Assembly (NCBI RefSeq): GCF_056746865.1
Contig: NZ_CM163382.1
Strand: one strand, 5' to 3'
Length of the DNA: 64,000 nucleotides
The first letter of the stretch is position 1; every line of letters starts with the position of its first letter. Below, in pieces: positions 58,142-58,312 of the stretch. The notes beneath the pieces are model-generated. The model saw only the letters and a list, made by a program, of their open reading frames with translations. It was not told where the DNA came from and searched no databases. A program made the position numbers and the translations under genes.

Positions 58142-58312
58142 TGACGCGTCTTATCAGGCCTACAAGTCCGTTGAAAATGCTGGTTTTGTAGGCTGGATAA
58201 GGCGTTCACGCCGCATCCGGCAGCCGTGCCCAAATGCCTGATGCGCCGCTTGACGCGTCTTATCAGGCCTACAATCCGTTGAAACTGCTGGTTTTGTGCG
58301 CCACATCCGGCA
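58142..58312. repeat. BIME: cluster of REP/palindromic units in alternating orientation
   Basis: Right half of the split PU (58146..58163), opposite-orientation PU tgtaggctggataaggcgttcacgccgcatccggca (about 58188..58222), intact PU gcctgatgcgccgcttgacgcgtcttatcaggcctac (58236..58272), partial PU near 58296..58312. Confidence 0.8.

Follow-up and report, generated by a model that had tools for sequence, protein, structure and literature searches.

A Y/Z2-type BIME interrupted by IS1397 between the convergent genes pepN and ssuB of Escherichia coli

The spacer between pepN and ssuB in the window (the whole 64-kb stretch of DNA analysed) contains, from position 56690 to 58312, what we read as one BIME interrupted by a copy of IS1397, to which a two-way role at mRNA 3' ends and a gyrase-type role can be inferred. 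We hold this composite reading with a probability of about 85%. Its parts differ in strength: the identity and the history of the BIME::IS1397 arrangement are near certain, and a 3'-end role with a measurable effect stands, by analogy, at roughly even odds. Indeed, every functional statement made below on the pepN-ssuB BIME is drawn by analogy with related repeats.

The two genes flanking the cluster converge on it, with the 3' UTR of pepN running into the BIME and that of ssuB entering it from the opposite side. The spacer measures 1641 bp in the window because a 1432-bp insertion sequence lies inside it. An earlier note on this DNA, made from the letters alone, had placed the BIME to the right of this element at 58142-58312, and these coordinates proved exact, with the right end 2 nt before the ssuB stop codon (Table 1). 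Two small open reading frames lying over the BIME (58160-58306 on the minus strand, 48 aa; 58234-58395 on the plus strand, 53 aa) were treated as mechanical by-products of the repeats.

Table 1. Features of the pepN-ssuB spacer and of the genes on either side, with positions in the window.
Feature	Position	Strand	Sequence	Remarks
pepN (aminopeptidase N)	54061..56673	+		from the ORF list and the RefSeq annotation of the identical sequence in strain 118UI
Split PU1 (Y type), left/head half	56690..56709	+	TGCCTGATGCGACGCTTGAC	last 4 nt, TGAC (56706-56709), are one copy of the target duplication
IS1397 (IS3 family), 1432 bp	56710..58141	+		transposase co-oriented with pepN
IS1397 orfA and orfAB	orfA start 56761; orfAB end 58109	+		programmed frameshift read-through
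Split PU1, right/tail half	58142..58163	+	TGACGCGTCTTATCAGGCCTAC	first 4 nt, TGAC (58142-58145), are the second copy of the duplication
Tail-to-tail linker 1, 24 nt	58164..58187	.	AAGTCCGTTGAAAATGCTGGTTTT	specific to the pepN-ssuB locus
PU2, complete inverted Z2 PU	58188..58222	-	GTAGGCTGGATAAGGCGTTCACGCCGCATCCGGCA (on the + strand)	first hairpin of the naRNA4 match
Head-to-head linker, 12 nt	58223..58234	.	GCCGTGCCCAAA	resembling the REP325 'l' linker; unpaired linker in the naRNA4 alignment
PU3, complete Y PU	58235..58272	+	TGCCTGATGCGCCGCTTGACGCGTCTTATCAGGCCTAC	second hairpin of the naRNA4 match
Tail-to-tail linker 2, 23 nt	58273..58295	.		second copy of linker 1, 96% identical
PU4 remnant, inverted Z2 head arm only	58296..58312	-	GTGCGCCACATCCGGCA	aligns with the PU2 head arm
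ssuB stop codon	58315-58317	-		BIME end 2 nt away
ssuB, last gene of the ssuEADCB operon	58315..59082	-		convergent with pepN

The interrupting element was identified as IS1397 at several levels. PGAP labels the identical DNA 'IS3-like element IS1397 family transposase, programmed frameshift', the reading frames carry the Pfam domains HTH_28/HTH_Tnp_1 and HTH_21/rve/rve_2/rve_3, and the element ends in imperfect 25-nt terminal inverted repeats that are 84% complementary (TGAACTGCACCCCAAA... and ...TTTGGGGTTCAGTTCA). It is flanked on both sides by TGAC, and joining the flanks with one TGAC restores TGCCTGATGCGACGCTTGACGCGTCTTATCAGGCCTAC, a 38-nt hairpin with 14-nt arms that carries the duplicated bases in its loop. 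Exactly as reconstructed, this uninterrupted PU1 with a single TGAC occurs at pepN-ssuB in Ecol_316 (L003), by which both the insertion event and its target are demonstrated. Concern had been voiced that the dense palindromes could mislead assembly or alignment near the IS junction; many independent complete genomes show the sequence across both junctions with 100% identity, and this speaks against an error of assembly.

The left end of IS1397 (window 56710-56763) has a structure of its own, formed by UGAACUGCACC and its pairing partner GGUGCAGUUUA, the latter lying shortly before the orfA AUG. The resulting hairpin takes in the Shine-Dalgarno region (117-nt fold, -28.5 kcal/mol, z = -3.2) and, as modelled, looks like the usual IS block on transposase translation from read-through transcripts, which here would arrive from pepN.

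To the right of the element, the PUs follow each other in alternating orientation. This much of the earlier description stood, whereas the at least three further PUs that it counted come down to two complete ones and half a PU. Over the entire cluster the order is Y forward, Z2 inverted, Y forward and an inverted Z2 remnant, with unit spacings of 109 and 108 bp. The terminal remnant, PU4, lacks the 18 nt that form the tail arm and the loop of PU2; it is not a palindrome, and folding yielded no structure of its own (z = +0.5). Direct alignment of the two 109-bp units describes the pre-insertion BIME as a tandem array of ~1.7 Y/Z2 units of 109 bp each. Tandem Repeats Finder returned no array, either in the window or in the uninterrupted allele, as is to be expected of a repeat that falls short of two copies and has lost 18 nt internally.

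The PU motifs are far more frequent than chance would allow. The PU tail motif CTTATCMRGCCTAC, with at most one mismatch, occurs four times in the 64 kb against 0.02 expected, three of the four being in the BIME. The PU head motif occurs ten times against 0.97 expected, four of them in the BIME. The sole other complete PU in the 64-kb window is a solitary, Z-like unit on the minus strand at 2303-2338 (GCCGGATGCAACG-CTACCG-CGCCTTATCCGGCCTAC).

A search with REP/PU consensus models had been proposed as a check on these assignments, and the outcome was positive: the Rfam naRNA4/REP325 model matches, and identity of the PUs with the Y and Z2 units of REP325 amounts to 94-97%. Rfam holds no REP family as such, and the naRNA4 family RF02564 was used in its place; this family is based on the 77-bp Z2-l-Y units of K-12 REP325, whose repeats are named Y and Z2 (PMC4550694). 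It aligned to positions 58191-58269 on the plus strand, scoring 76.2 bits where 59.5 is the gathering score (E = 5e-13); the alignment runs through the entire model, positions 1-77, and includes both hairpins. A weak match to the Rfam family mir-3130, at 23.3 bits below that family's gathering score of 95, was discarded as spurious.

PU typing refers to comparison with REP325 of K-12 (L010, raw sequence) and not to the published Y/Z1/Z2 consensus as a yardstick; by this measure, the reconstructed PU1 and PU3 are identical to the Y unit at 37 and 36 of 38 positions, respectively, and PU2 agrees with Z2 at 33 of 35 positions as compared with 28 of 37 for the inverted Y. The head-to-head linker and the REP325 linker share 7 of 12 positions. 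The RefSeq record of K-12 lists no curated REP features at pepN-ssuB or at REP325. That the region is repeat-derived, as originally supposed, also follows from a 321-nt query, for which E. coli genomes contain a median of 33 matching places. The tail-to-tail linker is not a motif spread over the genome. Coverage of at least 80% was reached in 2249 genomes, and across the 3074 genomes with a match the median number of places was two, as would fit the two copies that the BIME contains. Matches to a 19-mer of the linker in Campylobacter, Firmicutes and Bacteroidia MAGs were set aside as chance, having neither pepN/ssuB flanks nor a PU nearby.

Three classes of BIME serve as reference. BIME-1 has one Y/Z1 pair and a long L linker, in which an IHF site is often found; BIME-2 consists of Y/Z2 in multiple tandem copies, and mixed compositions are classed as atypical BIMEs. 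The number of copies at a given locus differs among strains (PMC3333891). According to PMC2817692, BIME-1 is bound by IHF and BIME-2 by gyrase. Composition and variable copy number of the pepN-ssuB cluster fit, as far as sequence can tell, a BIME-2-like or atypical BIME. The tail-to-tail linker, which is 23-24 nt long and locus-specific and may not be the short 'S' linker canonical for BIME-2, could place the cluster among the atypical BIMEs rather than the strict BIME-2. Like BIME-1/RIB/RIP elements, the cluster contains two inverted PUs, tail to tail, with a linker of some length between them; in contrast to these, it appears to have Z2 and not Z1, is repeated and not single, and its linker is devoid of the IHF consensus.

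The last point bears on protein binding. The IHF consensus WATCAANNNNTTR has four exact matches in the 64 kb, all of them outside the BIME. When one mismatch was allowed, the BIME gave a single match (TTTCAACGGATTG, 58272-58284 on the minus strand, in linker 2), and linker 1 gave none. Membership in the IHF-binding BIME-1/RIB group was rejected, the L linker with the IHF consensus being absent from the BIME. The general remark of the earlier note that BIMEs bind IHF was likewise, judging by sequence, not sustained for a cluster of Y/Z2 type without a WATCAANNNNTTR site; going by type, this composition and the missing site would lead us to expect binding by gyrase alone.

REP325 itself, located between yjdM and yjdN in K-12, is the closest comparison that we drew. 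Both clusters consist of alternating Y/Z2 PUs in tandem units whose number varies among strains, and the head-to-head Z2-linker-Y pair of the pepN-ssuB BIME matches the REP325 unit model end to end. However, REP325 has six units with a period of 100 bp, whereas ~1.7 units with a period of 109 bp are found here; in addition, the tail-to-tail linker is not the REP325 spacer and the last Z2 is cut to one arm.

A comparison of PU number and order with other strains, also proposed at the outset, revealed that the number of units varies while their order is kept across Escherichia. In the loci L004 and L006 (around 274-300), a 12-bp loss from the PU1 head arm has removed the hairpin targeted by IS1397. 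Between PU2 and PU3, L008 (2403-2620) has one more unit, Z2-like but degenerate (TTCCTGATAAGGCGTTTACGCGCATCCGGCA). One extra full 109-bp unit is present in L013 (7000-7310; the GTDB 'E. coli' representative SCPM-O-B-8794), which contains five complete PUs and the half PU, and this three-unit version indicates expansion or contraction by whole units. The half-Z2 remnant recurs in L013, L014, L016 and L018. Moreover, the succession of Y, inverted Z2, Y and an inverted half Z2 abutting the ssuB stop was found in E. whittamii, in Escherichia sp. E1V33 and in divergent E. coli. Since this architecture is common to Escherichia species, the BIME allele must be old.

K-12 represents the other form of the spacer. 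It occupies the same position between convergent pepN and ssuB and likewise offers a stable hairpin to both 3' ends, but it is only 42 bp long and consists of one terminator hairpin with a 12- to 13-bp stem and no PU. A further difference between the K-12 allele and the BIME allele lies in the final 10 codons of ssuB. At the protein level, the last 10 residues of SsuB differ (window 58315-58350 compared with L001 778-815), reading ESETRLRKQG in K-12, and in the remainder of the protein only 4 of 245 positions differ between the alleles. An identical PepN (WP_000193813.1) is found with either spacer type (L002 and L003 as against L009), which places a recombination breakpoint at or near the spacer. 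K-12 J53 furthermore contains, at 3552843-3552865 (H137), a 23-nt partial match of 95.7% identity to the linker's right-hand portion together with the PU tail, TTGAAAATGCTGGTTTTGTAGGC; this match occurs at one other locus in K-12-like genomes without the pepN-ssuB BIME, has an E-value of about 1 and may be due to chance or to a related REP flank. A literature search for pepN together with BIME brought up only unrelated papers.

Population counts were obtained from 5426 complete E. coli genomes. The uninterrupted BIME was present in 2064 of them (at least 80% of the reconstructed empty site covered). The succession of pepN, half-PU and left IS1397 junction seen in the window was found in 145 genomes, and in a further 40 (L008, for example) IS1397 resides in PU1 in the opposite orientation with a duplication of TGA. 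These three configurations (2064 + 145 + 40) add up to 2249, precisely the number of genomes with the locus-specific linker, and other interrupted configurations are therefore rare or absent. Most of the remaining genomes, K-12 included, apparently have the 42-bp spacer with its hairpin terminator and no PU, as judged from sampled ranking rows.

Near-full-length IS1397 was detected in 1707 of the 5426 genomes, and 185 of these carry it in PU1. Given the opposite orientations and the different duplications (TGAC versus TGA), at least two independent insertions into PU1 have taken place. The 145 listed junctions of the window type are 100% identical, which fits clonal inheritance of what would be one event. 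The cluster had been called an evident target hotspot of IS1397. The two independent hits in PU1, in 145 and 40 genomes, speak for this label and carry it that far and no further, and a hotspot at PU1 is plausible.

A trace of the element was also observed at another locus. In the yhhI-yhhJ spacer of E. coli B (L022, 401-465), a 65-bp relic of the IS1397 right end is directly followed by a right half-PU of Z type, TAAACGCCTTATCCGGCCTA, and adjoins the transposase gene of an ISEc1 (H-repeat). It looks like the fossil of an IS1397 insertion into a PU. By 6 of 12 sampled rows, the relic is carried by roughly 1800 other genomes, and it seems to account for most genomes without a full IS1397 copy.

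How the cluster might act on transcripts was approached through its predicted structures. In the BIME allele, no intrinsic terminator was found between convergent pepN and ssuB; the terminator of the K-12 allele has a 13-bp stem. Folded as RNA, the uninterrupted BIME (L003) is predicted to reach -90.9 kcal/mol (z = -6.5), with PU1 and PU2 joined into one long hairpin and PU3 forming a separate one. For the part of the BIME to the right of the IS, folds were predicted on both strands with z about -3. By analogy with other REPs, the PU hairpins on RNA would serve pepN and ssu transcripts as a 3'-end structure working in both directions, where they would block exonucleases in 3'-to-5' decay and cause partial, partly Rho-dependent termination. 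On DNA, the Y/Z2 cluster would belong to the BIME type that is bound and cut by DNA gyrase.

A recent preprint (bioRxiv 10.64898/2026.03.23.713779) provides parallels. It reports that REP325 stabilises upstream mRNA and attenuates downstream transcription, that a REP placed between convergent genes is associated with higher expression of the pair, and that about 40% of convergent-gene REPs lie within predicted bidirectional terminators. The same text describes REP effects as context-dependent and terminal REPs as not generally tied to longer mRNA half-lives.

IS1397 entered the loop of the first Y PU, duplicating TGAC. The insertion destroys the PU1:PU2 doublet and puts 1.4 kb between pepN and every complete hairpin, while the ssuB-proximal hairpins (PU3, then PU2) stay intact, so that any effect would be expected on the 3' end of pepN and not on that of ssu.

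Four other explanations were weighed against this reading. One, which we regard as possible but rather unlikely, is that the cluster acts mainly on DNA, as a high-affinity gyrase site or a topological insulator that absorbs positive supercoils, the RNA hairpins being incidental. Positive supercoils accumulate between convergent genes, and it is between such genes that the BIME sits. Each complete PU is able, by computation, to extrude as a DNA hairpin (-9.0 kcal/mol each for PU2 and PU3). The Y/Z2 BIME type is, moreover, reported as bound and cleaved by gyrase in PMC2817692, citing Espeli and Boccard 1997, and in PMC3333891. However, the locus offers only two or three complete PUs, and about 3200 E. 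coli genomes are without any BIME at pepN-ssuB, so a function at the DNA level cannot be essential. A gyrase or insulator role is in any case compatible with the interrupted BIME as a two-way 3'-end element.

It is also conceivable, though we doubt it, that the cluster has no host function and represents a selfish, non-autonomous REPIN-type doublet, mobilised or amplified by RAYT/TnpA-REP and tolerated in a permissive spot. PU1 and PU2 of the uninterrupted allele, forming one long hairpin, bear the signature of a REPIN (PMC3116915), the E. coli RAYT gene is flanked by Y and Z2 units according to PMC2817692, and at pepN-ssuB the unit number is strain-variable and presence or absence of the cluster polymorphic. 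The inverted REP doublet with its spacer, predicted as a single long hairpin in the uninterrupted allele, indeed resembles the REPINs of Bertels and Rainey (2011); here, in contrast, the doublet is part of a higher-order tandem cluster and has been split by IS1397. What weighs against recent mobility is the architecture of the locus, conserved down to the terminal half PU at the ssuB stop in E. whittamii, E1V33 and divergent E. coli, which points to long vertical persistence. The BIME allele is, besides, without any other terminator. An origin as a REPIN does not exclude the 3'-end role that we favour, and both may be true together.

Far less credible is the idea that the Z2-linker-Y pair is transcribed as an naRNA4-like RNA that binds HU and helps to condense the nucleoid. 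The full-length match above the gathering score does lie on the pepN-sense strand, and condensation by HU and naRNA4 has been reported for REP325 (PMC4550694). Yet what the Rfam model describes is essentially a Z2-l-Y REP pair, and the match therefore denotes a type of repeat and not a function. The 2026 preprint (bioRxiv 10.64898/2026.03.23.713779), which has an author, Sankar Adhya, in common with the original naRNA4 paper, reports no measurable chromosome compaction by REP325/naRNA4. In the window, furthermore, the 1.4-kb IS stands between the pepN promoter and the unit. Finally, motif counts far above those of shuffles, the covariance-model match, the median of 33 similar places per genome and the identical junctions in many complete genomes leave practically no room for the palindromes being chance GC-rich inverted repeats or an assembly artefact instead of REP-derived.

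The interrupted BIME with its proposed two-way role is a feature of an already known kind, and the pepN-ssuB locus behaves as expected. REP/BIME clusters and the preference of IS1397 for PUs have been described since the 1990s. Insertions of IS1397 into PUs were reportedly documented by Bachellier (1997), Clement (1999) and Wilde (2001, 2003). The known cases share with the present one a 1432-bp IS3-family element and a TGAC or TGA duplicated in the hairpin loop, and specific insertion into PUs is stated in PMC1525189. Each component (Y/Z2 PUs, BIME-2 or atypical BIME, IS1397 in a PU loop) is a textbook case. Beyond them, the locus adds that PU1 has been hit at least twice, in opposite orientations and in different lineages, and otherwise nothing of substance.

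A bolder interpretation, to which we assign little credence, sees the pepN-ssuB spacer as an old, maintained two-allele polymorphism that sets 3'-end processing of pepN and ssu, with PU1 as a preferred IS1397 site through which the pepN 3' end is repeatedly re-tuned. If this were true, one allele would comprise the BIME and the version of the ssuB C-terminus common to E. whittamii and other Escherichia lineages, and the second a plain hairpin terminator with the other ssuB C-terminus. The alleles would then differ in 3'-end processing and expression of pepN and the sulfonate-sulfur operon, and PU1 would be favoured by IS1397 beyond its general preference for PUs.

For the reading of this DNA as an IS1397-interrupted BIME, the consequences are more immediate. 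The IS1397 junction is genuine, and the half-palindromes flanking it together make up one PU and do not stem from faulty assembly. Annotation as a repeat region is apt, rather than a search for a gene or a small RNA, the naRNA4 match reflecting the repeat type. The pepN-ssuB spacer presents a natural allelic series for REPs as two-way 3'-UTR elements between convergent genes, ranging from the terminator allele over the BIME with two or three units to the BIME with IS1397 in either orientation.
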